IMG/VR virus record: IMGVR_UViG_2912869438_000005
Span: 1 to 64,000 of that record
Direction: 5' to 3' (one strand)
Length of the DNA stretch: 64,000 nt
Source: an uncultured virus (IMG/VR IMGVR_UViG_2912869438_000005)
Taxonomy: Duplodnaviria; Heunggongvirae; Uroviricota; Caudoviricetes
Part shown: positions 2,363 through 59,508 of the stretch, in pieces
Position numbering within the stretch: position 1 is the first letter of the stretch
Layout of the letters: each line of letters begins with the position of its first letter
Program-made: the position numbers and the translations under genes
Notes under the pieces: generated by a model
The model's database searches: none
The model's input: only the letters and a program-made list of their open reading frames with translations
Told to the model about the DNA's origin: nothing

Positions 2363-4266
2363 TTAGGATTCACTCTTAGTAGTTATTTTACGAATGTAAT
2401 CATCTTTGTTCGTCCCGTAGTAGCCATTGAAATTGGACTCACCCAGAACAATGATACGGCCAGTTCCTTTGGTGTTGGCCACATTTACCTCGGTAGCTTC
2501 AGCTTCAACTAAAATAGCGAATTCTTTTTCAACACCTCTAATTCGATTTCCTTCTATTCTTCCATCGTAGCCATTCTCAACATAAATTCCTCCACGGCCT
2601 CTTTCACTACTTTGTTCTTTATTATTATTTAATACATTATTATCTCTAACATCAAAATGGTCACATTTTTGAACAAATACACCGTTTCGACCAGTGGTGT
2701 TGATCTCATTCCTATCAATTGATACATGATAGGACTTTGTAACAGTGGAGGAGGTGTCTCTACTCTTAGCGAGGTATACTGCTTCTGTATCTACATTTGA
2801 TACGCCATTGCCAGAAATAAAAATGTTGAAACAACCTTCAACCCACATTCCTCTTCGTCCACCGTAAATTTTATTATTGCTAACGAAAACATTTCTGGCA
2901 AAGACTAGCTTTATTGCCTGTTCATCATTGTATTTACCAACCTCTTTTCCTTTTAATTTGAAATAGTTGCCCGATATGCGGATTTCATCGTTCCAAGCTA
3001 TTTCTTTATTATAAATTTGACCAAACGCAACAACTCCACTGGATGTATAATCGTAGAAATCATTTCCTTCAATTAACACGTTTTGTCCATTTTGCGGTCG
3101 ATTCATCTGTACACCATCTGCATCTTTAGAGCTTTCAATTCCGCCAGCAGCTTGTGAAATACGCACACACTCTTTATTACGCATGAACACATTATTTGTA
3201 ATTTTAACGTTGTTCCATTTAAAAGTTCGAACTCCAGCAAACCCACAGTCCTCAATAACATTATTAAAAATGGTGATATTACTTTGAAAAATATCATAAA
3301 CAGCATAATGATTCCCTATAGCACATCCCCAACCGCCTAACAAATCGGATTTTCCAAAATAATTATGCGCAATATAAACATTTGTGTTAGGTGTGCCATC
3401 GAATTCACCAAATTGATTAAGTCCTATTTCAATGAATTCTCCAAGCTGAATAGCCTCTGAATAATTTCTCTGTCCAGTAAGATCAATAAAACCAGTAAAT
3501 TTGCTATTTGTAATTCGAAGATTATCACATCCATTAGCATCAATCGCATGGGCGCTTATCGTATCTTTAAATGTTACATTGTCTATTGAAATATTTTTGG
3601 CATGTCCAAGGATTATTGAATCCATAGCGCTCGTAGGGTACTTATCAATGTTTGCATAGTTCCCATCTAAAATACCGCCTTCAATGATTATGTTTCCTCT
3701 TCCTGAATAACCTTTGAATTTATCAGTCGGCGTTCCGTTAGAAAAAAAACCTCCTGCCCATCCTCTGAGCAGAATACAATTTTGAGCCATAGTCACCCGA
3801 GTATTTTCATAGACAAACATTCTTTTTTTAATTAAATATTTGCCACCAGGAATAAAAAGTTGTCCTCCACCTTCTTTATGAATTTCATCCAGCGCTTTTT
3901 GAATAGCCTCGGCTGAAGGTTTTACCCCGGTAGGATCAGCTCCATAACTAAGAGCATTTTTAAAATAAATTTTTTATTTAGGGAGCTGGAGCTTTCATTA
4001 ATTATTTCCTCCAGATTAGTTATTTTATTATCAACGCCTTTATCCAATTGATCCACTTTCTCATTGATTTTGAGAAAGTCAGAGTCAATTCTTTCTTTAG
4101 CTGATGAGTAAACGTGATTATCATTGTCAATCTTTATATCATCTAAAGATTTAATATCATCAGCAGTATATCTATTGTTTTCAGATTTTAATCCTACGGC
4201 GTCTATTGGAATCCATTTCTGTGAATCTTCATCATAGTAGCCCATTGTGTTTACAGGGATTGACAT
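2363..4266 (-). pseudogene. yomE: beta-helix (pectin-lyase-like) tailspike/depolymerase, split by a 1-nt frameshift
   Basis: ORFs 3922-4266 and 2363-3820 join (KIYFKNALSYGADPTG..AIQKALD..LFIPGGKY) if the 6-nt run at 3970-3975 had 7 nt. Confidence 0.8.
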
Positions 4267-5094: not shown

Positions 5095-7734
5095 TTAATT
5101 TTGTTTAAATGCTTCCCAAATATATTTAACATTTAGTTTGTTTCCGCGAGTCTTGCTGTCTGAGCCCGTAATAAAATAATTCAAATCCAAAGAGCCGTAT
5201 GTTTTATCTCCTCCTTCAAGATATGTCCCTGCTTCTCCATTCTGTATTGAGTAGCCTCCTAAACTACTTTGTATCATTAGCGTTGAATCAGTGGGGGAAG
5301 TGGAATAAATCTTTACCATAGTAGGAATGAAGTTAAGGCTGATTGATCTACTTGGTTTTCCATCACCAATATATTCTCCGGATACGTATTGAGGGGGAGA
5401 GGGGAGATCAGACTTTAGGACATATTCAGAAGCATTATAGCCGCCCAATTGAGTTGCACTTCCCGTAATTGAAGCATCAATTGTTCCTGTTTCATCTCGA
5501 ACAGCTATCGTGTTAGGAGAGGATGCTATCTCAGCACTATATCCATTTAACGAATCTGCAGAAGATACAGTTTGTTCAATCCACTTTTCACCATCGTAAA
5601 GTTCTTGTTTATTAGTTTTAGGATTGATCCAAACAGTGTTGACATCTGGATTTTCTGGTCTTTCTTCAGAAACAGCTTGGATTAGTCCATTTACTCGCCC
5701 ATTGACTACTGCAATAGCAGAAGGGAGGTAGGGGTTTTCTGTTATGTGTTTTGACTGAACAATGTCAGAGAGAATGATTCCAGTTCTCTCAATATCTGCA
5801 TCAACTCTGCGGTAGGCTCTAACACCCACAGTGTAGTATTTATTCGAGGCAAGTCCCGTAAATTTATAGGAGCGCTTGTCATACTTCACATTAACCATTT
5901 CTTCGTGGCTCATCTTAGAACCAAACACATATTCATCAGGTGATTCACTGGAGTAGAGATAAACTTCAAACCCATCAATGTTGTATCTATCCTCATCAGA
6001 ATCTGGGTATTCCCATTTTAAAATAATATCTACTGAACCATTATCATTCAGCTCATGAGTAATTGCGGTTCCGTCTGATGCGACGGTAGGAGCTGCAACT
6101 GGGGTAGAAATTCGATCATTCCGGATTTTAAAATTCTCAGCGGTATTCATCCAGTCAATTTTTCTAATTGCATAGTCGTTGTTTATATGACTGACTGTAT
6201 AAACGAGTTTGACCATCTTTTCTTTAACAGTTTCAACTCGTTTTGAATTTGACACAGTCAAATTAATCTTATTAGCCTCAAAGTCAAAGGTCATTTCAAT
6301 TACTTTTGTTTTAACATCAATACCAAGGCGATCATGTTGTACTCTAACAATATCTCCGATAGATAGCCTGTCCCAATTCTGATGTTCACTTATGATTCCA
6401 AAGAAATTAACAATGCTCATTGTAATATTGACAGGAGGGGTGTTGCGCTTTTTCATTTCCTCAAGTCCGGCTTCATAAAGGTCAGTTTCATCATAAAGAT
6501 TGTCATTAGCCCATTCTTGCTCATTTATAAATTCCGCCAATTCTTCTTTGAGCTCATCATTAAGATGACTTTCAAGCGTCAATTTTCCCTTTAAAAGGGT
6601 TATTTTATCTTGAATGTCCTTAATCAGTTTTTCTTTTTCTTCAATTTCCTTCTTTTTCGATTCAATTTCAATTTCTTTAGCTTTTCGCTCTTTTATAAGC
6701 TCGGCAGTTGGATCTTTCGCTTCTGTTGCTACTGCAATTTTATCTAAAATAATCTTGTATTCTAAATCAAGCTTTGCCTTTTCTGCGTTAAGTGTTGAGA
6801 GTTTCTTTTCTTCCTCGGTTTGTCGAGAGAGAAGGGAAGAGAATGTTTCAGTTTGAGAATCGATGAACTCATTAAAATCGAGGATTGCATGACATAATTC
6901 ATCGCTCATTTCGTAACTGTGAGTTATCACCTTGCGATCTTTATCTCGCTCAAATGGATAAAGAAAATATGTGAAATCTTCTATGTAAGCTTGTCCAGTT
7001 GGATTAGCAGCGTTTATTGAGAGATCATCTTTCCCAGTTACATAAAGCCTGGTACAGACTTCTTCAAGTTCTTCAGTATCTTCTATTGAATCCAAATACT
7101 GACCGTATTTTAATCTCATCCCTTTGTAATTTGATACTTCATCTTCAGTATAGAAATGAACCTTTTTTTCTATGGTGTCAAATACAGGGACAGCTTCGAA
7201 TGTCTCGCATATTTTAAAGAGAAAGTCTAACTTTGTAGAAGAGGTGATATCAAAACTGCGGAATTTTTCATTGAATAGAGGATTTATGTATCCGGCTTTC
7301 CAGTTTGTGTTTGCAAAACAGTCATTTGTAACCTGTTGCATATTATAGGAGGTGACTTCATATCTTCTAACTTTTCGATAGCTCAATTGATGTCCAAGTG
7401 ACATGCACGTAAATGTAATTAAATCATTGTCTGCACCAGTTTTTTGCTTTGTTTTAATAATGAACCATTCATCTTTGAAGTTGTAGGCAGAAAGCTTGAC
7501 GAGCCTTCGTAATTTCAGGCGCTTGAGATGAGGATTCTTAACCCATTGTTTGTCTATTTCAATTTTTAAAGGTACTGCAAAAGACAACTCATTGATTTCT
7601 CCTAGTCTTAATGTCAAATTAACATTTGAGATATCGACAAGATTTGCGATTTTCTTTTTATTAGCTTTAGCAAGTGAAAGTTTCGGCTTTCTTAAATTAA
7701 ATGATCGCGTTACTTGTTGAAGCAGTAAAAGCAC
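5095..7734 (-). CDS. yomG: tail-associated (Tal/hub-like) protein with coiled coil and Fn3 domain
   Basis: Prophage tail domain (TRLYVTGKD), Fn3-like segment; probable start is CTG at 7725. Confidence 0.8.
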   Translation of the reverse strand: MLLLLQQVTRSFNLRKPKLSLAKANKKKIANLVDISNVNLTLRLGEINELSFAVPLKIEIDKQWVKNPHLKRLKLRRLVKLSAYNFKDEWFIIKTKQKTGADNDLITFTCMSLGHQLSYRKVRRYEVTSYNMQQVTNDCFANTNWKAGYINPLFNEKFRSFDITSSTKLDFLFKICETFEAVPVFDTIEKKVHFYTEDEVSNYKGMRLKYGQYLDSIEDTEELEEVCTRLYVTGKDDLSINAANPTGQAYIEDFTYFLYPFERDKDRKVITHSYEMSDELCHAILDFNEFIDSQTETFSSLLSRQTEEEKKLSTLNAEKAKLDLEYKIILDKIAVATEAKDPTAELIKERKAKEIEIESKKKEIEEKEKLIKDIQDKITLLKGKLTLESHLNDELKEELAEFINEQEWANDNLYDETDLYEAGLEEMKKRNTPPVNITMSIVNFFGIISEHQNWDRLSIGDIVRVQHDRLGIDVKTKVIEMTFDFEANKINLTVSNSKRVETVKEKMVKLVYTVSHINNDYAIRKIDWMNTAENFKIRNDRISTPVAAPTVASDGTAITHELNDNGSVDIILKWEYPDSDEDRYNIDGFEVYLYSSESPDEYVFGSKMSHEEMVNVKYDKRSYKFTGLASNKYYTVGVRAYRRVDADIERTGIILSDIVQSKHITENPYLPSAIAVVNGRVNGLIQAVSEERPENPDVNTVWINPKTNKQELYDGEKWIEQTVSSADSLNGYSAEIASSPNTIAVRDETGTIDASITGSATQLGGYNASEYVLKSDLPSPPQYVSGEYIGDGKPSRSISLNFIPTMVKIYSTSPTDSTLMIQSSLGGYSIQNGEAGTYLEGGDKTYGSLDLNYFITGSDSKTRGNKLNVKYIWEAFKQN

Positions 7735-8553: not shown

Positions 8554-11500
8554 CTATATTTTAACCCCTCTAGCTGATACAATATTAAATGCTTCTCCTA
8601 AGAATTTGTTTGCATCATCTTTAGATCCAGTCATCTTATCTACATTAAAGTTAAAGTTAAATGTTTGATTACTTGTCGTTTGATTAGATGCAGCACTAGG
8701 GGAAGGGAGTGTAGCTTTTGTTTGAATATCTCCAAAAATGTTTCGGGTTAGCTCAACAATTTTCAGGACATTGCTTGTATCAGCTTTATTTAAAACAAGT
8801 TCTTGTTCATGGAGCATTGCAAGCCTTCCTGAACTACCCCAATTTCCTGTATAGCCACCCACATCAAAAGAGGCAACTTTTTTACCTGTGGTGTTTCCAG
8901 AGACCACAACATTTAAAGCTTTGGAGGCTTCTTTAAGCTTATCAATTAGATTGTTGGAGATACTCTTACCAATAGACTCCATATTGCTGTTAATGAACTT
9001 TGAAAACTCATTGAGCTGTTTGGCGATATCGGTAATCTTCCCATCCATCAACTTATCCTCAAGCTTTTTGAATGCTCTTTCGTCGTTGACAAGATCATCA
9101 TACTTGGTGTTTATTGATTTCTCATCTTTTTCAAGTTGATCCTGTAATGCTTCTTTACGTTTAGAATTCTCACGATCCTTTAAAAATTCATCAAGATCTT
9201 GTTGTTGTTCTTGGAGTTGCTTATCTAAATCTTTTAGTTTTGCTTTTGCCTCATCTGAATCATCGAGAGACAGTTTGCTTATCTTGTCTTTTGTTTCTTG
9301 AATGGCATCCTGTTTTTCTTTAAGGGATTTCTGGAACTTGGCTTCGTCGTCTTCTTTATCAATTTCATCGATTATATCTTGAGTTGCTTTTCGATGTGCT
9401 TCCAGCTCAATATCACGCATCTTTTCGTACATTTCTTTATAAATTGAAACGACTTCATCTGCGAGTGATTTATAGATATCTTTAATGGACTTCTTGGTGT
9501 TATAAAGCTCCAGGTTGTATTCCTTCTGTTTATCCTTCCAGTTTTCAATTTCCTCTGTGATTTGTTTCTGGATGTCAGGGAAACCTTTAGCTGCCTTTTT
9601 CTGTGCTTCAAGTTGCTTAATGTACTTTTTTGCTTCAGCTTGTTGCTGTTGAATCAATTTTATTTGCTGACTGTAGTACTTGACTTTTTGATTGTCATCC
9701 TCAGTCATTTGAATCTTGATATCAACATCTTTAAGCTTGGATTCAGTTTTCTTAACAGATTTCTCAATATTATTGAGTGTCTGGTCAACCTGTGACTGAA
9801 TTAGTTCCCCTTGTAGCTCTCTAACTTGGTCTTGCAAGGAGATGAGATCTAATTTAGCCTGTTTCAGCTCTTCTCTTAGTTGATCGCGTTGAGCATAGTT
9901 AAGTTTTTTATTTGTTTTTAACTCTTTGTTGATCCAGTTAATTTTTTGTTGTTGAATTTTGCGTTGCTCGTCAACAGCTTTCTTCTGCTCATTTGTATAT
10001 TTGCGAAATTCCTTGCTGTCAGAAAGGTAACGTTTGGCTAAAGACTCATTTTTAGCAATTTTGACTTCTAGATCAGATTTCCGTTTATCAAATTCATCAA
10101 GCTTGGATTGAACCAATTCGTATTGCAGGTCTTGAATTTGATCATTAACTGCATCTAAATCACCTTGCAAACCGATTAAATCCGATTTTGCCTGTGAAAG
10201 GGCTTGTTGTCTTTCAGCTTCAGACTGAGAAAGATCTGAGGTTAAACCCTGCATATACTTTTCTGGGTCAATTGGTTTGCCATTTTGCTCAATTTGTAGG
10301 TGGAGGTGGTTTCCTGTTGAGTGTCCAGTGCTTCCTACTTTACCTATTGTTTGGCCAGCAGATACAACATCACCTTTCTTAACTTTAAGGCCGTTTTGCA
10401 TGTGCATATATTTTGCAACTGTTCCATCATCCTGTTGAATGACAACCCAGTTACCTGCTGTTTTTGAATAGGTAGCGGTTATGACTTTACCAGCTTTCAA
10501 TGCTTTTACAGGGGTTCCAGCTTTAGCGGCTAAGTCTAATCCTTTGTGAGGGGTGGAGCGGAGACCTCTTTCTTGCGCTCCAAACTTTGAACTTACTCTA
10601 AATCCATTGCTGCTCGTGTAATAATTTGCGATCTTGGAGGTCGCTGTAGACAAGCTCTTATTGTAGTTAGAAAGAATTATTTTTACGTAATTTTGCGTTT
10701 CTTTAAAAGGAGGAATACCACCATATTTTATTACGTTACCTGGCCCCGCGTTGTAAGCAGCTAAAGCTTTCTCGATGTTCCCTCCAAACTTGTTTAACAT
10801 TTGAGCAATATATTTGGTACCGCCCATAATGTTTTGGTAGGGATCATATGCATTTTTTACACCTAGACTTTTTGCAGTACCAGGCATGAGTTGCATCAAA
10901 CCCATTGCTCCAGCGCCAGAACGAGCTTTGGCATTGAAGTTTGATTCTTGTTTAATAATCGCAGCGATTAGTGCAGGGTCAACACCATATTTGCTTGCTG
11001 CAGCATTAATATAAGAAGAGTATTTTCCGGAATATGATCCTCCAGAAGAATATGAGCCTGATGAAGAACCAGAAGAGGAAGAGGAGGTAACAAGTCCAGT
11101 TTGAGGAATATAACCAGATTTGATTTGCTGTTTCAGCAGTTTAATCTGATCTTGCATTAGCTTTTTCTTACGCTCTAATGCCTTGATTTCCTTATTGATT
11201 GCGTCTCTGTATTTTTGTGACCATTTAGGATAATCATTGGTTTGCTTGTTGTATTTCTCAATTTCTGCATTTACTTTTTCAAGGGCTTCTTTATATTTAT
11301 CAATGACGTATTTGGATTTCTCAGTTTCTTTGCTGGCTTTCTCTTGTTCATCAGAATATTTCTCAAGGGACGTACCAACTTCATTTAAAGATGAGTTGGC
11401 CAATTCAGCCATTTTATCCAGATCTTCTAACTGTCCAGTGACGTCGCTCAACTCGTTTATTTCTTTAATGACTGGCATTGCCATCTGGATATTGCCACTT

Positions 11501-14500
11501 TCCATTAAAGTGTCTACTTCTTTTCTCATTTTGGAAAGATTGGCTTGTGCATCGGCAACAGTCTGGATTGACTTGACTTCTAAACCATAGTTCTTTATTT
11601 TCTTAACTGTGGCGTTTGCCTGGTTGATTAGATCCTGTTTAACCGACTTTTGCATATCATTGTATGCTTTAAGTTTTGCATCACGTAGTTTTATGATAGC
11701 ATCTCGGTTTAATTTAACTACGCCGTTTTCAACACTAATAGCTCCAGCCAAGTCTTTTTCTTTTTGAACCAGTTTCATTGCTTCAGCAGCTGAGATGCTT
11801 TTTCCTTCAGCCATTTTCTCAAGCAGTTCATTGAGAGGGGAGATGGAGTCAGCAAAAGAATCATATGCTTCATTTTGAAGGGCAGAAATAGCTTGTTCTG
11901 TTTGTTGAGAAGCCACCAAATCGTCCATTACAGCTTTTATTGCCTCTAGATCGCCTTTGGCATCCTTTAGCTTTTGACTTAAATCTTCAACTTCTCCTGT
12001 TAATTCGTTTACACCTTCACCATTTTCATCCCAAGTGATCTTTGCAGAATCAGCAGCATTTTTTGTGGAGTCTATAGCATTCTTTAGGTCATCATAAGAT
12101 AAGGAAAGTTTGTCAGCTTCATCAGAGCCTTTGATTTGTTGGTTAATTAAATTCTGAAGTGCTTGAGATGCTCTTGAGAAATCAACTTTATTTCCTGATT
12201 CTAATGCTTTCTGAATGTCATCCATGTATTTTGAAACATTAATGGAAAACGACTCTAATTCATCAGAAGTCATCTTACTAAAGTCAATTTTATTGAAGGC
12301 TTCGTTGATATCTTTGGTTAGCTGAGGGTTGATTTTAATGGAGTTATAAGCGTCAACAGTTTGCAGCACTTGCTCTCTAAGTTTAGCTTGAGAACTAGAT
12401 AACTTCTGATTGACTTGAAGAGCTTGTTGTTCAGCTTTAATCCCAAAATTTTTATAATCACTGTCGCTGTCGAAGATATCCCAGAATGGCCGATCATTAT
12501 TTTTATAATGGTCTGCAACTTTTTGGTACTCCTTCATTTCATCAGTCAGGTTACTGATATCACTGAGGGTTTCTTTAAAGTTGCTATTTGCGCCAGTTTG
12601 AATGTCTTTTTTGTTTAATTCGGCTAATTCTTTGGTGTATTTTATGGCATCTTCTAACGCTTCATTATTTTTAATGATGGCATTACCTTGGGAGTCATAG
12701 CCAGAAATCAAATTAGGGAACGTTTGTGCTAATTGTTGCGTGACCTGTAGATATTCTTGCTCCTTGTCAGGGGAAAGGGAACCGTTATCTTTTGCTTTTT
12801 GCAGCTCTTTATATTTTTGGATTAACTGATCGGTCTGTTCTTTATTTGTGGTTATTGCTTCGACACTTTTCTTTTGTGACTCTGCAAGCTTTTCTTGTTC
12901 TTGTTTAGCATCAGAAAAAGCAGAGACAAGTTTTTCGATTACGAAGCCTAAAGCCATGAAACCAGCACCGACAACCGTCGCAACCATTAATCCCCTAAGT
13001 GCAGTTTTCAATAGATTCGATGCTACTGCTGCACGAGTCATACCTGTACTTAGGCCAATGCTTGCAAGTGTTTCTTGTCTCATTGCAGAAGTACCGAGCA
13101 CAAGTGTGGTTGCAAGTGTTCTTACATTTTTACTAAGAAGAAGAGTGGCAGTGCTTGTTAAAGCAAAGATACTCGGTAAGAATCCAATGGTTTTCGTTAT
13201 ACCTGTCCCTAATTGAAGGAGGTCTTTTAAAGATTCTGTAAGGGCGATAATCCCATCTGAAATAACGGCGTCCCCTGCGGCCAGGCCGAGTTCTGTCCAC
13301 GCGTTTGATAATCGATTTATTCTTGCCTGGAGACTTTCTGAATATTTTTCCTGTTCTTTCCATGCGCTTCCGGTTGATTCCGCAGCCGTTGTTGCCGAAT
13401 CCTGGGCAAGCTGGAATTGGTTCATAAGTGCATTAAATCGAGATAACTGGTAAATACCGGAAACACCTATTGCAGTTTGCCGTTTTTGTGCCTCAGAAAG
13501 ACCGTCCCATTTGGAACTAAGCTCTTCAATTAGTTCACTTGCGCTTTTAGCTTCTCCACTCGCTGTTCTAACAGAGATGCCAATTTGATCTAAAGCTTTT
13601 ATTGAGCTTTCATTGTTTCCGATTCTCGCAAAGATTGTTTTTAAGGCGTTCAATTCTGTTACTTTCACCAAAAGGCTACTGACCATATAATATGGCGGTG
13701 AGGCACTTCAACCTCACTCTCTATGTTTCCATAGAGTTCAGACTGTCGCTTCACATTTCTGTGTCTCTTCACTCAGTCGTTCAGGCTGCCATTACGCTTG
13801 CCCCTTGTCGTCCTCGACTAAACGTTAGGATTTCCAAGTCAATCAGAAGAGATTTAATGTCAGCAATCATTTTACCGACAATGTTACCGGATTCACGCGT
13901 AGTGCTACCAATGGCGGTAGTATATCCTATTAAGTCGTTTAATTCAACACCAAAGGTTGCTGCTGTTGAGCCAGCTTTTCTAATAGAGTTCGCTAGATCT
14001 TGTGTTGTTCGTATCTACCCTCGGTTTCCCGATACTTAAGTAGGGGACTAGACCATATCTTTATCCATTCACAGGATAGTCAGCACTTCGATTTAAGGGG
14101 ATTTCGCCCACTTGTATTTCAACAAGCCCTACTCCTGTTGCGGAATTACACCGCCAAGGGATGGTCGTTGCACCTTCATTTTTAACAAATGCTTGGCACA
14201 GGATTACCGTATCAACTTGACTTAGGCTTTCCCTGTTAGCAATATGATTAATAAGCCATTTCCTGCTTAAACTGACCGTTCATATCACACCCAATTTGGT
14301 TCACTGACTTATCACTAACACATTTCTGTGTTAGGCGGCTAAGTTAACCGCATAGTTGTTGTCGACTTCATTTAATTTCGAATAATACCCTCGGTTTCCC
14401 GATACTTAAGTAGGGGACTAGACTATATCTTCATCCCATTGGGATGCCCAGCGCTTCGAACAGTAGCTCAAAATCTGCTCTACACCACAAAAGTTAGTCG

Positions 14501-16045
14501 TTACACCTTCCTAAAATAGGCTTGGCACGGTATTGTCATAGGATCCCTCCCTTAGAGTTCCACCGTTAGCATCCTTAGAAGAGGACACACCCCTGAGCAA
14601 TAGGGTTCACTGGGTTTACGCTTATACATTACTGTATAAGGCGACTATAATTAATCGGCAATTGAAATTGAGTCTTCTGCAGCAACATTAAAGTTTAACA
14701 TTGCACTTGTCAAAGTATTGACTGTTTCATCTACGGACAGATTCGATACGTTTTGAAGAACTTCTGCAGTTTTAGTAACGCTTCCTAATTCAGCTTCATC
14801 AAATCCCATTCTCCCAAATGAACTTGTCATTTGAAGAATATCTGAAATCTTGTTGGAAAGCTGATCTCCCATCTCAACTGCTTCCTGCAACATATCATTG
14901 AACTTATAATTAGGCTCATCCATAACCCTGCGAATTTCAGTCATAAGTGTGTCAATTTGAATAACTTGATCGACCATCGACTGCAGCCCGCGAATTGGCC
15001 CCATGAACATAGTCATACCAGCAAACCACACCGGTATGCGGGCGGCAGCGACTTCTAACTGTTCAACAAACCCCATTGTCTGCCTTGTAGTAGCAGCAAT
15101 GTTAGAGGACATTTCCCTAAACTGCATATTAAGACTAGCCATCTGATTTCTTAGATTAGGTGTCCTTGCAGACAATTGATTAACTGAATTCAAATACTGC
15201 TGAAGTTGTAAATTACTTGCCTGGCTCAATGAGCTGCCGTATCTGTTTTGTAAGTTCTGAGTATTTACCTGGGCTTGTCTTCTATATAGTTCTAACTGCC
15301 TTTCAAGCTCTTTAGTCTTTGCAACTGCTGCTGATTTGTCATCAAGAGTCTTAAGCTTGACTCTGAGTGCTTCAATTTGTTCTGTAGACTGAGCTAAATT
15401 AATTTTTCTTCCAAGAGAGGAGAGGGTGACTTCAGACAGTTGCCCTTGCTCTTTTAGTCTTTGTAAGCTTACTCTAAGCTGTTCGATTGCTTTTCTTTGT
15501 TGATCAAGATTTGTTACAGTGGTTGAGTTTTTAATATTCCCATTTTGGTCGAGATTGTACGTAATATCCTTAAAACCATCACGATTTTTTTGAGTAGTGC
15601 CTGTCTTAATGCCTTGAGCATTTTGCCTTTCAATTATCTTTTGAGCTTGGCCAAGCTTTTGAATTTCAGAGGTTAATTTTGCTGTTTCCTGAGCTTCTTG
15701 ACGAACCTTTTGATTTCGATTATCAATCGTCTTAATTTCTCGCTGAAGTATTTCACCATTCTTTTTGTGCTGCTGAATGATTTTTTCAGTTGTCCCATCA
15801 GAATTCTTAATGACCGTTTGTGTTTCTTTGACTGTTTGATTGTAATTCTTAAGATTTTTTTGATATGCTTCAACTGCAGAAGAGAATTCTTTGAGGGTTT
15901 TTAAAGCGGAAGCATCAATGTTTGTTTTGAGTTGAAGGGAGTTTAACTTAGATTGTAGTGTTTTAAGCTGTTTGTTGATTTGTTCGACTGATTGAGCGGA
16001 GGTGTCGGCAACTGGAGTAACTACAATTTTCAATTGTTGACTCAA
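8554..16045 (-). CDS. cwlP: tape measure protein with lytic transglycosylase and M23 peptidase domains; four exons (16045-14654, 14378-14347, 14009-13874, 13650-8554), 2218 aa after splicing
   Basis: Joined exons read [49 protein letters not shown] motifs ESNFN, GLMQLMP, YNAG; M23 motifs HKGLD, HLH. Confidence 0.93.
13651..13873 (-). mobile_element. group I intron 3 of cwlP (223 nt, no ORF)
   Basis: P1 UGUCGGU/GCUGACA; P3 UCUCUUC/GAAGAGA; P7 GACUG/CAGUC; P8 CACA-GAAA-UGUG; terminal G. Confidence 0.92.
14010..14346 (-). mobile_element. group I intron 2 of cwlP (337 nt, no ORF), splits a Val codon GT/A
   Basis: P1 GCGGU/GCCGC; R GCAACGACCA, S AAGAUAUGGUC; terminal G; reading frame restored. 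Confidence 0.93.
14016..14423. repeat. 38-bp identical direct repeat (14016-14053 and 14386-14423), the shared 3' region of introns 1 and 2
   Basis: taccctcggtttcccgatacttaagtaggggactagac occurs twice. Confidence 0.95.
14379..14653 (-). mobile_element. group I intron 1 of cwlP (275 nt, no ORF)
   Basis: Exon ends in U, intron ends in G; P1 CGAU/GUCG with U.G pair; R GUAACGACUA, S AAGAUAUAGUC; P3 CCCAGUG/CGCUGGG; P8 CAUCCC/GGGAUG. Confidence 0.93.
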
Positions 16046-16091: not shown

Positions 16092-16122
16092 AAAAATAAA
16101 AAACTCTGCATTCAAGCAGAGT
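16092..16122 (-). terminator. intrinsic terminator just upstream of cwlP
   Basis: ACTCTGC/GCAGAGT stem followed by a U-rich tract on the minus strand. Confidence 0.65.
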
Positions 16123-16134
16123 CAAGAAAATCAT

Positions 16135-16386
16135 TTATTTTATGTATAGCGGTTCATCTTCTTCATCAATTTCTTCAGTATCCTCAATTTCAAGCCCCAT
16201 ATTAGAGGCTTGAAGGGTTATCTTATCACCGTCAAAATTTGTTAATGTTATTTCTTTAAGTTCCTCAAATTCACCAAAGTCCAATAAATTATATTCCGTA
16301 AATCGTTTAGCTTCATCCTCAGAGTTTCCAGGTGTTGTTTGGAAAGCGGCTATAGTTAACGTCAAGTGGTTAATGTATTTTTTCAT
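16135..16386 (-). CDS. hypothetical acidic protein
   Basis: GGAGAGGG RBS before ATG at 16386 (MKKYINHL). Confidence 0.65.
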   Translation of the reverse strand: MKKYINHLTLTIAAFQTTPGNSEDEAKRFTEYNLLDFGEFEELKEITLTNFDGDKITLQASNMGLEIEDTEEIDEEDEPLYIK

Positions 16387-18043
16387 TTTCCCTCTCCTTG
16401 ATGGATTCTTGAAAAGATAACTTTTTTCGTTTGACAGCAAGCTGTTTATTTCTACAAACTACACTACAGAATCTTTGTTGTGAGAAACTTTTTTTACGCT
16501 AAATTCTTTATTGCAACAATTACAATTTTTAGTCATATTACTTGAAAGTTTTTGAAAAGCAGCGAAACACAAATGGCTACAGAAATGATTCCGTGACCTT
16601 TTATATAAAGAAGGAATCGTTTCACACCTTTTTTTACAATAATCACAATTAAAGGTTATGGCCTTCTTTGAATAATTTTGTTTACATTTAGTTGAACAAA
16701 AAATATTTTTTTGTATCCTATTTTCGACTAAATCAGCTTTATACTTATTTACAACAATCTCTTTATTGCAATTGGCACAAAATAAAATTCTTTTTTGTTT
16801 TTGTCTATATTCTTTCGAACAATTCAGTGAACAAAAAAGCTTATTAAACTTATCATAATAGTGTTTGTATCGAATTTTCTCTTTATTGCAATTGAGACAG
16901 TTGAATTTTATATGTTTTTCTGGCTGATAATTATTTGCTTTACTTCGTGTGGTAGTATCCGTAATTTTTGATAGTTCTTCAATGCTCCATTCCATATACG
17001 GTCTTATGATTTCATTTTTCAGTGTCAATTCGTCTTTTTTTAGGGAATAGTTAAAGCTATGATAGTTCATAAGCTTCCCCTTGTTGTTTATAAAGTCATC
17101 AATCAATTTTTCACACAGTCTAATATTGTTATAAATATCGTCTTCCCATAAATAAAGAACATAATATTTTTTATTTCGCAAATAAGTATTTTTTCTTTTG
17201 TCATATTTTATTCGTTTCAATTGAATGTCATAATTGATATTTTTATAGTATCGATTATCTGCGTGCCAAAAACCTCCATTGATTTCTATTAAAAGATTAT
17301 AATTTGTTAGAAATAAGTCAACAGACCACTTTCCCAATACTTTTTCTTTTTCAAATTTGATTTCTTTAGTGTTTAATAATTTATCTATGATTACTTGAGG
17401 TTTCGATTCAGTAAAACTAATTTTACCGTTAGTTAAATTGGACAAGAGAATTTTTCGATTTCTGTTTATTACGTCCTGCTGTTTCACATATACTTCACTA
17501 TGCCAATTATTGCGACAGTCTTTATTACAAAAGTTCATATTCCTACTTTTCAAGTATGCCGCGGTTCTTTTTAACGTTTTACCGCACCAACCACAAGATA
17601 TCGTATACCTTTTAACATAATTAGGGTTGTTTGCTCCCGATTTATTTTCACTTTCATAATCACCTTTACATTTTCTACTACAAAACCTACTTGATTCAAA
17701 TAGTGATTTTTTTATTTTATATTTTTTGTTGCAAAATGCGCACTGTTTATAAACGATTCCTTTATTCGATCTCTGTTTCCCTACAAATCTATTACCACAA
17801 ATATCTGTACAAAAATGAGTCTGGAGTCTGTTTTTTAATTGCGGCGTTATATTTTCTACTGAATTTTTTTCCACAATAATCACATATGCACTGTACCATC
17901 ACCACACTACCAATAGACAGGTCTGATATGTTGTTGACTTTAAAAGCTTCGCCGCTATTGGTGAAAGTGTATCCTCTCTGCTCATAATGTTTTCTATTTG
18001 CTCCATTCCATTTCACAATCACTTGCTGATCTTTAATTATCAA
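16370..18043 (-). pseudogene. free-standing Vsr/DUF559-like putative homing endonuclease with many CxxC..FCSxxC zinc fingers; two homopolymer frameshifts
   Basis: ESKPQ..VDLF..IEINGGFWHAD..YDKRKN..LYLWEDDI core; removing 1 nt at 17831-17836 and adding 1 nt at 16489-16495 gives one ~557-aa ORF from TTG 18043. Confidence 0.75.
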
Positions 18044-18059
18044 AAAGCTCACCCCTAAA

Positions 18060-18269
18060 TCAAAATCCATCCCAAGAAATTTTCACATTATGTACCTTGA
18101 CTGTCTCTAAAACTTTTCCATTCTTGTGCAACAGAGTCAACTCTGTCAAATCAACTCGATCATCAGACATGGTATAGTATGAATCCAGTATGGCTAGATC
18201 TTGAGTTGTAGCATTAGAGATTCGAGATATTTCTAAATTCATCATGCCGTAAACTGTCTTACTAAGCAT
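18060..18269 (-). CDS. hypothetical protein
   Basis: 69 aa, GAGGAG RBS. Confidence 0.6.
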   Translation of the reverse strand: MLSKTVYGMMNLEISRISNATTQDLAILDSYYTMSDDRVDLTELTLLHKNGKVLETVKVHNVKISWDGF

Positions 18270-23238: not shown

Positions 23239-23916
23239 TTAAACTTGATGGTTTTTTTCTTTTAAAACCTTTATTTCATCTCTTAGTTCAGCAATTTCTT
23301 GTTCCATGTCATTGATTTTTTGATACTGTAAGCTATAAAGCAATGAAAAGGAAGTTTCAATTACTTCTTGAAAAATTGATCCCACTAAATAAATATCTTC
23401 ATTCAAAGAGGATATCTTATTCAATAATCGCCCTTTACTTATAATCCTCAATTCATCCATTACAATAGCTGATTCAGATTCAAATCCATCAGCAGGAGTA
23501 ACTCTCCTGTAACGTTTAAGTCCAGAAGGATTTGTTATTGGATGAAAAGCATCTTTCACTTTGTCAGGACTTGATGTAACAGGTAACACGATCAATTTGT
23601 TTTCAATTTCATCGAGAATTAGAACAGGATGACAATAAGCAAATTCGAAATTTAGTCCTAAATCGGCTAAAAAGATTTCCCCTTGTTGTGGTGTTACTAT
23701 ATTGTTCCTTTCCTTATACTGATTAAACCGCCTTCTTTGAATCCAGTTCTGTAAGCTTTTTGTTATTTCTGACAGCTCATCTTCATTAACTTTATAAGAA
23801 CAGTGATTTACAAAGTTAAAAGATGTGAGGAGAAACTCTCTCCATACTTTTTCTGAATCAGAAGCCTTAATATTATTTGATAAATTGTTAAACTTGCTAA
23901 AATCAGGTTTAAGCAT
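23239..23916 (-). CDS. PemK/MazF-family protein with N- and C-terminal extensions
   Basis: QGEIFLADLG..E...HPVLIL..LIVLPVTS..S....ELRIISKGRL. Confidence 0.75.
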   Translation of the reverse strand: MLKPDFSKFNNLSNNIKASDSEKVWREFLLTSFNFVNHCSYKVNEDELSEITKSLQNWIQRRRFNQYKERNNIVTPQQGEIFLADLGLNFEFAYCHPVLILDEIENKLIVLPVTSSPDKVKDAFHPITNPSGLKRYRRVTPADGFESESAIVMDELRIISKGRLLNKISSLNEDIYLVGSIFQEVIETSFSLLYSLQYQKINDMEQEIAELRDEIKVLKEKNHQV

Positions 23917-53766: not shown

Positions 53767-54618
53767 ATGAAAGGCGTATACAAAATAACAAATAAAATAA
53801 ACGGAAAGAAATATATAGGCAGTAGCTCAAATGTTTTCAAAAGATGGGAACAGCATGTGACTGATCTGCATTACGGGTTACATCATTCACACCTGCTACA
53901 AAAAGATTGGAAAAAATACAGCTTGAATGATTTCACTTTTGAAGTATTGGAATATGTTGAGGACAAGAAAGACTTATTAAAAATAGAACAAATGTGGATA
54001 GATGGGGAAGATGTATCTACCCTTTATAATGTTCTAACTTCAACCACAATTCACAGCATTTCAGCACCATCTAATATTATGGAAGATTTGTTCTTTTGTA
54101 ATAACATTCCCAATGAAACTAAACAACTTTTAAGAAAAAATCTAAAAATTCATGAGAAAAAAGGAAAGCTTCTTCAAAGCGGCAACAGTAAATATGATTA
54201 CAGTAAAACATGGTTCACCAAAAATGCTGAGGATGTACGGCAATTAAAATGGAATATGAATAATTATTTTTATAATCAGACCAGTTCAAAAAGTATAGAA
54301 CGTTGCTGGACAACATTCACACAGTTTGCTAGACAATTAGAATTCAAGGGGAATAAAAAAAGATTTGTTCCACTCAATGGACAGTTATCAGAAAAGGAAA
54401 GGAAAAGTTATTTATGTTTTGCAGTTAACTGTTTTCCTAACTCATTTTTAACTAGGAAATATAAAGAACTATCTAACTTAGATGAGGATACATATGCTTT
54501 ATCATTAATGCTGAAATGGATTGTAAATTGTGGGGATATTAAGAACCCTATAACCATATTTGTTCCTTCACTTAGAATGGAAAAATTATTGTCACAATGG
54601 TTAAAAAACAATAATTAA
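53767..54618 (+). CDS. GIY-YIG nuclease fused to a YonV-like C-terminal domain
   Basis: GVYKI..KYIGSS..RW.QH..E; C-terminal half aligns by eye with 54632-55849. Confidence 0.8.
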   Translation: MKGVYKITNKINGKKYIGSSSNVFKRWEQHVTDLHYGLHHSHLLQKDWKKYSLNDFTFEVLEYVEDKKDLLKIEQMWIDGEDVSTLYNVLTSTTIHSISAPSNIMEDLFFCNNIPNETKQLLRKNLKIHEKKGKLLQSGNSKYDYSKTWFTKNAEDVRQLKWNMNNYFYNQTSSKSIERCWTTFTQFARQLEFKGNKKRFVPLNGQLSEKERKSYLCFAVNCFPNSFLTRKYKELSNLDEDTYALSLMLKWIVNCGDIKNPITIFVPSLRMEKLLSQWLKNNN

Positions 54619-59410: not shown

Positions 59411-59475
59411 ACAGTCGTGGCGGCGACGTTAAATAGGCATTAAGCCGCCAGCGTTCCCCACATTGGGGAGGTTGC
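59411..59475 (+). ncRNA. pistol self-cleaving ribozyme
   Basis: P1 GUCG/CGAC; loop UGGCGG pseudoknot with CCGCCA; UUAAAUAG; P2 GCA/UGC; UAAG; GCG; P3 UUCCCCA/UGGGGAG; GU cleavage site at 59471-59472. Confidence 0.9.
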
Positions 59476-59508
59476 AACAGGAATAACTCTATATTTCATC
59501 GCAATAAA

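Follow-up and report, generated by a model that had tools for sequence, protein, structure and literature searches.

Three ORF-less group I introns in the tape-measure gene of an SPbeta-like Bacillus prophage, at a probable homing hot spot

The tape-measure transcript of Vibrio phage ICP1 comprises four exons and three introns, as proven by RT-PCR (Barth et al. 2023, PMC10448857), and for terL the same paper considers collaborative homing, with a nuclease that stands free next to an intron. Tape-measure genes of B. cereus-group prophages carry the introns TMP-IVS1, 2, 3a and 3b (Tourasse and Kolsto 2008, PMC2504315), and orf142 of Staphylococcus phage Twort contains three group I introns (Landthaler and Shub 1999, as cited in PMC10136302 and PMC11878797). 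Three introns are also found in polA/terL genes of the Bastillevirinae.

In the 64,000 nt stretch of viral DNA analysed here (IMG/VR record IMGVR_UViG_2912869438_000005, positions 1 to 64,000, hereafter the window), three ORF-less group I introns on the minus strand interrupt the SPbeta-like cwlP/yomI tape-measure gene of a Bacillus prophage. The locus resembles that of ICP1 in having three introns in a tape-measure gene and in the turnover of its nuclease content; however the ICP1 introns carry HNH-3 nucleases as described, whereas those reported here lack ORFs, occur in a Bacillus host and are accompanied by a Vsr/EDxHD-like nuclease outside the gene. With the B. cereus introns it shares mostly ORF-less IA1/IA2 introns in prophage tape-measure genes, where similar introns can occupy separate sites and a single site can hold unlike introns, but those described in PMC2504315 occupy three sites with at most two per gene and belong to lambda01-like rather than SPbeta-like phages. 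Like Twort orf142, this is a tail gene with three introns, two of them similar IA2 introns flanking a short exon (23 nt in Twort, 32 nt here), although orf142 is the tail tube gene of a lytic myovirus and the exon skipping shown in Twort was unseen here. A further comparison is YomI/CwlP of SPbeta (NC_001884), with the same domains and gene order, but this region is uninterrupted in SPbeta itself and in the SPbeta-like isolates of B. subtilis that were listed. In a search of mainly open-access papers we found no paper on introns in SPbeta-like cwlP and none on a tape-measure-linked Vsr nuclease family, and the word 'intron' is absent from the SPbeta survey preprint. The features of the locus, in the direction of transcription of cwlP, are:

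17792..18070, minus strand: N-terminal part of the upstream nuclease gene, in another frame of the same gene
16459..17883, minus strand: putative free-standing Zn-ribbon and Vsr/EDxHD-like nuclease ORF (474 aa, main part of the broken gene)
16135..16386, minus strand: 83-aa ORF, bordering the nuclease slot in B. licheniformis-group prophages
16102..16123, minus strand: hairpin resembling a terminator (by pattern match only), separating the nuclease cassette from cwlP
14654..16045, minus strand: cwlP/yomI exon 1 (codons 1-464, 1392 nt)
14379..14653, minus strand: intron 1 (275 nt, after Asp464; IA-type, with P2 and extra stems between P7 and P3)
14347..14378, minus strand: exon 2 (32 nt, 10 codons plus GT)
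14010..14346, minus strand: intron 2 (337 nt, inside Val475; IA2-like, with P7.1/P7.2)
13874..14009, minus strand: exon 3 (136 nt)
13651..13873, minus strand: intron 3 (223 nt, after Gly520)
8554..13650, minus strand: cwlP exon 4 (5097 nt, 1698 codons; remainder of PhageMin_Tail, SLT and M23)

An in-frame TAA opens intron 1 directly after exon 1, and among the eight possible splicing subsets only the removal of all three introns gives a product of 2218 aa, the other seven stopping at 464, 479 or 550 aa. Over 2189 columns this product shares 63% identity with SPbeta YomI, and it contains PhageMin_Tail, SLT and M23 domains; exon 2 is among its most conserved stretches. T precedes each intron and G is its last base, giving predicted junctions of GAT/AAA, GT/A and GGT/AAC for introns 1, 2 and 3 respectively. 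When shifted in-frame, stop-free boundary pairs were scored against YomI (174, 215 and 321 pairs for introns 1, 2 and 3), no pair outscored this T and G pair in any of the introns, and it was the sole top scorer obeying the U/G rule. The longest stop-free frames within the introns are 46, 72 and 63 aa; a plus-strand ORF at 13692-14039, antisense and spanning introns and an exon, was taken as spurious. Introns 1 and 2 share an identical 35-nt 3' part, and nt 62-159 of intron 1 are 94% identical to an HNH-bearing intron carried by the phage's own DNA polymerase gene.

Each intron has a P7 helix (GACTA/TAGTC at 14499/14425, GACCA/TGGTC at 14166/14055 and GACTG/CAGTC at 13778/13745 for introns 1 to 3) and a P3-P7 pseudoknot core with a G-C guanosine site, backed by covariation. 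In 12 sequences of the intron-3 family 98.5% of cells over 61 pairs are paired and 14 pairs are altered on both sides, 0/500 shuffles scoring as high, with slid controls at 31-50%; in 17 sequences of the intron-1/2 type 91.1% are paired over 38 pairs and 26 pairs are altered on both sides. The P1 U.G pair is present in 12/12 and 17/17 of these sequences, accompanied by the terminal G in all 12 of the intron-3 family. Stems between P7 and P3 (P7.1/P7.2) mark subgroup IA2, and such hairpins fold in introns 1 and 2. Intron 3 is of a different class: it has only 3 nt between P7 and P3 in place of the IA stems, lacks P2 and P7.1/P7.2, has a short P4 (four Watson-Crick pairs only, in the model used) and three stems after P9, and its best match among GenBank phages is 69%, with no close one. 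A match to the group I model RF00028, which the sequence-only reading had expected, was obtained for all three introns (43.5 bits, E 2e-9; 49.5 bits, E 3e-11; and 27.1 bits, E 2e-4, with the 5' half misregistered), each under the 50-bit gathering score, so that a default Rfam scan at that threshold overlooks them all (0/3 found). That reading had also described introns of 275, 337 and 223 nt with a U.G P1 site, a terminal G and covarying P7 helices, whose joint removal restores a 2218-aa CwlP; all of this holds, the helices covarying among relatives, and its proposal that full-length CwlP needs three splicing events is supported by frame, boundaries and covariation. As far as sequence can tell, the group I identity and the boundaries of all three introns are supported.

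Excision of intron 2 was seen in contigs of public RNA sequencing runs; those with small word shares (X12-X18) were set aside. In run X2 a 366-nt contig closes 14342 onto 14007 without extra letters, forming a 336-nt intron 2 circle which, given three ambiguous bases at the closure, is equal to a circle of 14345..14010; its depth is 131 compared to 16-19 on the flanks (approximately 7-8x). Run X9, from another study, contains intron-2 contigs and a joint 14009-14347 that skips exactly 337 nt, the intron 2 spliced junction, in a single contig of depth 2.4 for which the letters between the joint ends are not given. One of the three junctions anticipated from the sequence, GT/A, has been seen, while GAT/AAA and GGT/AAC appear in none of the four RNA runs examined; contigs of X2 run unspliced across the 5' site of intron 1 and the 3' site of intron 3, and run X1 is unspliced throughout. 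Two further joints were rejected: 13650-13875 in the mixed run X4, whose base at the splice site differs and which matches an allele lacking the intron, and 14435-14495 in X1 and X4, which belongs to the DNA polymerase intron. Introns 1 and 3 presumably splice as well, and we infer that all three ribozymes would act without proteins.

Related regions contain 12 group I sites and one group II site within aa 464-594, spliced-aligner calls scoring below 450 (distant loci) being excluded from the counts. Of 126 regions 91 are intron-free, five have three introns and one has four, and the sets of occupied sites vary freely; with these cases, ICP1, Twort orf142 and Bastillevirinae polA/terL in view, the rarity implied by the sequence-only reading was overstated. 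Removal of the hot-spot introns leaves an open frame of at least 945 downstream aa in 34/35 intron-bearing regions. Identity among 50 distant homologues is highest at aa 450-550 (0.55-0.58 vs 0.33-0.47 elsewhere), and conservation at intron sites exceeds that at random positions (0.63 vs 0.52, p about 0.005). Intron 3 is 98% identical in loci L100 and L110, where 15 and 17 flanking nt are also identical, the exons otherwise being mostly 45-75% identical. The intron at site 591 of L110 shows 88% identity with intron 1 and 93% with the site-464 intron of L073, but it resembles the other introns of site 591 by only 54-57%; sites 464 and 591 both end in CGAT, hence the same P1 fits both. Intron 2 looks like a mosaic, judging by its resemblance to introns of site 591 (nt 6-191, 75-76%), site 503 (nt 170-260, 74-78%) and site 464 (nt 256-331, 86-87%).

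The upstream nuclease is, by domain and residues, a putative EDxHD/Vsr-like homing endonuclease, with matches to DUF559 (E 8e-5) and I-Bth0305I (PDB 3r3p, E 9e-4; PMC3239194) and with the acidic and His motif residues of the Vsr-like catalytic domain retained. It differs from I-Bth0305I in that its family has Zn-ribbon repeats and is tied to tape-measure genes rather than recA, and in that the window copy is frameshifted: the break lies at a 7-bp tandem duplication (17830-17817) and splits in two a reading frame found fused (525-563 aa) in other genomes. A single-sequence scan found no relatives; an alignment scan did, using a query alignment (A5) built mostly from tape-measure loci, and 58/60 of the closest distinct relatives are located in or before tape-measure genes, 42 between hot-spot pieces and 16 free-standing upstream. 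Among the 42, 15 have a motif-called splice site exactly at 520 and 13 lie near 468-470, positions taken from HMM pieces and a motif scan because other boundary calls were noisy, 12/29 having no assigned site. Half of the free-standing relatives (8/16) adjoin an uninterrupted domain. In the window a free-standing nuclease adjoins an ORF-less intron, the arrangement of collaborative homing (PMC3984707, PMC10448857). A site-520 intron is present at 4/4 SPbeta-like loci with a free nuclease (the window, L114, L456 and L535, equivalent to L111), and nuclease and intron co-occur in B. licheniformis-type contigs in 3/3 vs 3/11 (Fisher p 0.055, the contigs not being independent). Intron 3 stands beside a different nuclease in L100, L101 and L110, and no upstream member of this family was seen with site-520 introns of B. 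subtilis/pumilus type. A quick, poorly resolved nuclease tree gives no direction, and a promoter scan was at chance level (24 vs 20.9). This circumstantial evidence tips slightly towards a nuclease target near codon 520 and spread of intron 3 in trans by collaborative homing; since 13 family members lie at 468-470, the target could instead be exon 2.

We propose, with a probability of roughly 0.85, that the three introns are selfish, splice themselves and occupy a homing hot spot, intron 3 having probably been spread in trans by the upstream nuclease. On a late transcript each intron would fold, its guide pairing with the last exon bases to place a U.G at the site, free guanosine would cut the splice site and the exons would be joined, the 2218-aa CwlP depending on all three excisions, failing which translation would end early; in excised intron 2 the last G would then be linked to the second base, closing a circle. 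The introns would pile up here because codons 464-594 are both the conserved core of a variable gene and a homing-nuclease target, and as they have no ORFs of their own their spread would rely on gene conversion at the DNA level, initiated in trans. The nuclease would have cut intron-less alleles near codon 520, the site of intron 3, before its copy here was frameshifted. The introns would then be passengers rather than a regulatory device, and we infer no regulatory role for them.

ORF-less introns may instead reach new sites via RNA (reverse splicing of linear or circular forms, then recombination of cDNA) or when adjacent introns recombine, the contribution of nucleases being small. The likeness of the L110 site-591 intron to introns of site 464, the CGAT ends common to the two sites, the mosaic intron 2 and its abundant circle are all consistent with this. 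We nevertheless consider it unlikely, since the co-converted flanks of intron 3 and the block-wise mosaic exons fit DNA conversion, and a recombinational core swap into a resident site-591 intron accounts for L110 without RNA. According to the available text of PMC3984707, direct evidence for the RNA route is lacking. The RNA or recombination route could hold for new sites and homing for spread at one site.

Retention of the introns as a control on tail production or for alternative splicing is quite improbable. Joining exon 1 to exon 4 is in frame, and loss of both exon 2 and exon 3 (168 nt) would give a 2162-aa tape measure and a slightly shorter tail, single skips stopping at 473 or 477 aa; introns 1 and 2 with their common 3' part also flank a 32-nt exon much as in exon-skipping Twort orf142 (PMC10136302). 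However such a skip would delete the most conserved residues, no skipped junction occurs in the RNA-run contigs examined, introns 1 and 3 belong to separate classes, and intron-free relatives predominate among regions whose sites vary freely. Least probable is that, with splicing incomplete, the gene acts through separate 464-aa and 1710-aa products, or that the prophage tail gene is dead, even though databases list both pieces as separate proteins, an ATG at 13686 within intron 3 starts a 1710-aa frame and unspliced contigs dominate two RNA runs: conserved residues of exons 2 and 3 stay in register, compensatory changes maintain the folds of all three ribozymes, intron 2 is excised in RNA, and the frame remains open past the hot spot in nearly all intron-bearing regions.

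On the reading proposed here the locus is a good case of known biology and not a novel type of system, since ICP1 already provides a tape-measure gene with three introns. Many Bacillota-phage tape-measure genes are filed as two proteins because their introns fall under the Rfam cut-off, which distorts tail-length predictions; the 464-aa piece of exon 1 is listed as a separate tape measure protein in a cluster of 37 members, and the tape-measure gene of Geobacillus virus E3 is likewise filed as gp42 and gp43. The locus offers a natural series on the spread of ORF-less introns, their arrival at new sites and the entry of nucleases into introns, and a small phage intron whose circular form accumulates in RNA from Bacillus is a candidate component for circular-RNA work. 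We tentatively suggest that the tape-measure core of Bacillota siphophages may be a dense hot spot (at least 12 sites in 130 codons) with a Zn-ribbon/Vsr-type nuclease family of its own that is met in each of the three states on the path of collaborative homing (free-standing next to a gene without introns, free-standing next to an intron without an ORF, and inside an intron), where ORF-less ribozymes swap modules and jump between CGAT sites, possibly via stable circles. If true, this would provide a Bacillus system for direct tests of the origin of mobile introns and of RNA-mediated ectopic moves.

The provirus record totals 127,460 bp, of which the window is the first half, and from the named members of the gene's protein clusters we infer a host of the B. 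licheniformis group. The order of the surrounding genes and a product with 63% identity identify the gene with the introns as the orthologue of SPbeta yomI/cwlP. Three group I introns without ORFs interrupt it:

14653–14379, minus strand: intron 1, after T, terminal G
14346–14010, minus strand: intron 2, after T, terminal G
13873–13651, minus strand: intron 3, after T, terminal G

The sequence-only reading had proposed these introns and an uninterrupted product of 2218 aa on removal of all three, and both claims hold: the full length is reached only if all three are removed, partial products ending at 464, 479 or 550 aa, and the U/G boundaries are the best or tied best when compared with YomI (174, 215 and 321 alternatives for introns 1, 2 and 3, respectively). 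The proposed search with RF00028 matched all three, although each fell below its cut-off. The folds find support, short of proof, in covariation, with 61 pairs, 98.5% paired, and 14 two-sided changes among 12 introns at site 520 (sites are numbered by the preceding codon), and 38 pairs, 91.1% paired, and 26 two-sided changes among 17 introns of the intron-1/2 type; none of 500 shuffles scored as high in either set, in models that were drawn from the window's own sequences, and relatedness among the sequences inflates such tests.

Introns 1 and 2, with 60% identity between them, share a 35-nt identical 3' stretch and both have stems between P7 and P3. Intron 3 belongs to a different class, having neither P2 nor P7.1/7.2, a P4 of four pairs and three stems after P9. 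Subgroup names and catalytic splicing steps are used here in their established sense. By eye, the intron 3 family shows a conserved GUCAGU near the 3' end (window 13693–13665) complementary to bases immediately preceding P4 (~13845–13835); the two might form an alternative pairing or one that inhibits.

Four of 23 listed RNA runs, from four studies, were examined, all as assembled contigs and from libraries that may contain DNA; the comparison covers RNA runs only. Of the expected spliced junctions, that of intron 2 was found in a single X9 contig (depth 2.4) skipping exactly this intron, alongside contigs of intron 2 itself, but those of introns 1 and 3 were not seen in contigs of the four runs. 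In X2 a 366-nt contig closes on itself over 336 nt (3-base ambiguity), corresponding to intron 2 minus its first U with the last G joined to base 2, at a depth of 131 compared to 16–19 on the flanks. PMC4344496 describes 5'-shortened circles of this kind as a fate of excised group I introns. Other X2 contigs span two splice sites unspliced, and X1 is unspliced throughout. Joints in X4 (14617–13935 and 13933–14016) suggest a further site in a relative, between ELND and LIG near residue 500.

The implied rarity of a tape-measure gene with three introns was not sustained. Published work describes tape-measure introns in B. cereus-group prophages (PMC2504315), three with RT-PCR proof in ICP1 (PMC10448857), and three-intron genes in Twort and Bastillevirinae. 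Our literature search found nothing on introns in SPbeta-like cwlP, supplements and figures beyond its reach (Tourasse Fig. 4, Barth tables) being sources that could bear on the site comparison. We read related loci with a spliced aligner, dropping those scoring <450 or incomplete and merging near-copies, which left 126 regions, a non-random sample since the search patterns were biased, some towards intron-less genes and others towards introns. Insertions were absent from 91, while 20 had one, nine two, five three (the window, L110, L111, L114 and L291) and one four, this being L266 from Virgibacillus profundi, with four group I introns within ~1.4 kb (2470–3895). The triple intron is part of a hot spot rather than a one-off. 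Group I sites follow residues 464, 468, 470, 474, 495, 503, 516, 520, 580, 585, 591 and 594, and in L139 (Saccharibacillus deserti) site 474 is occupied by a group II intron that lacks an ORF (2845–3503), confirmed by Rfam. Across nine hot-spot loci Rfam gave 14 group I matches and none for the insertions in L164, L196, L291 site 585 and one intron-3 copy. Conservation of the protein peaks in this stretch, and the insertion sites show more of it than positions picked at random there. Geobacillus virus E3 (L001) carries an unannotated 304-nt group I intron at 470 (5979–6282), which explains its split gp42/gp43 tape-measure annotation.

Several observations point to movement of these introns. 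L100/L110 carry intron 3 at 98% identity, and 15+17 bases flanking it are identical too although the exons otherwise diverge, the pattern that would be expected of DNA conversion. Introns 2 and 3 probably came in on a swapped block, because identity between the window and L072 is ~95% up to the intron-2 site, 53–88% over the next 125 codons and then 96–100%. In intron 2 the types of three neighbours are combined as a mosaic, site 591 of L110 holds a relative of intron 1 (88–93%), and part of the intron 1 core is 94% identical to an HNH-bearing intron in the same phage's DNA polymerase gene. That group I intron, with its HNH-like ORF, lies outside the window (G000 C1 ~101764–102777, plus strand), as does a group I intron without an ORF (94 bits, ~112709–112950, plus strand) in an nrdE-like gene, whose core resembles, by eye, site-503 tape-measure introns. 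Longer introns at the hot-spot sites encode nucleases, Vsr-like at 520 in L091 and L305, LAGLIDADG at 520 in L093 and of another type at 591 in L068.

An ORF upstream of cwlP (16459–17883) combines Zn-ribbon repeats with a Vsr-like domain matching I-Bth0305I; it is disrupted by a 7-bp duplication, and fused forms of 525–563 aa occur in other genomes. Close relatives vary at this slot, with other nucleases or a different gene in it, or with the slot empty. Other large nuclease-like ORFs occupy it in L072 (148–2484), L073 (626–2482) and L100 (2–1582), some with swapped C-terminal domains. The best 80 of 191 relatives confirmed in IMG/VR gave 60 distinct nucleases, 58 of them accompanied by a same-strand tape-measure core, a link that may be inflated as the query alignment came mostly from tape-measure loci. 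GenBank phages gave just three weak matches to the nuclease domain, and the literature search found nothing on a tape-measure-linked Zn-ribbon/Vsr family.

We favour, with a probability of about 0.55, collaborative homing at codon 520, in which the free-standing nuclease would spread an ORF-less intron in trans (reviewed in PMC3984707). In 42 of the 58 the nuclease lies between pieces of the core, 29 of them near 515–540 (15 called exactly at 520); the remaining 13, near 468–470, could point to a target in exon 2, which we consider improbable. The site-520 intron is present in all four SPbeta-like loci with a free nuclease, and in B. licheniformis-type contigs its link to the nuclease stood at 3/3 versus 3/11 (p 0.055, contigs not independent). 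That the nuclease has no link to these introns is doubtful, if less so than the exon 2 target; among the 16 loci with the nuclease free upstream, the eight with an uninterrupted core are compatible with it, six being interrupted and two undecidable.

Other features noted in the window are:

59413–59476, plus strand: Pistol ribozyme RF02679 (61 bits, cut-off 34.5)
53767–54618, plus strand: GIY-YIG homing-endonuclease-like ORF directly 5' of a helicase-like gene
23239–23916, minus strand: PemK/MazF-like ORF in a variable region upstream of tail genes; Geobacillus virus E3 has genes of similar annotation at the equivalent place

The finding is real and was read correctly, but its headline, three introns in a tape-measure gene, was already known. 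What is added is the hot spot, a nuclease family linked to tape-measure genes, indications that some introns are ectopic or mosaic, and a circle in vivo.
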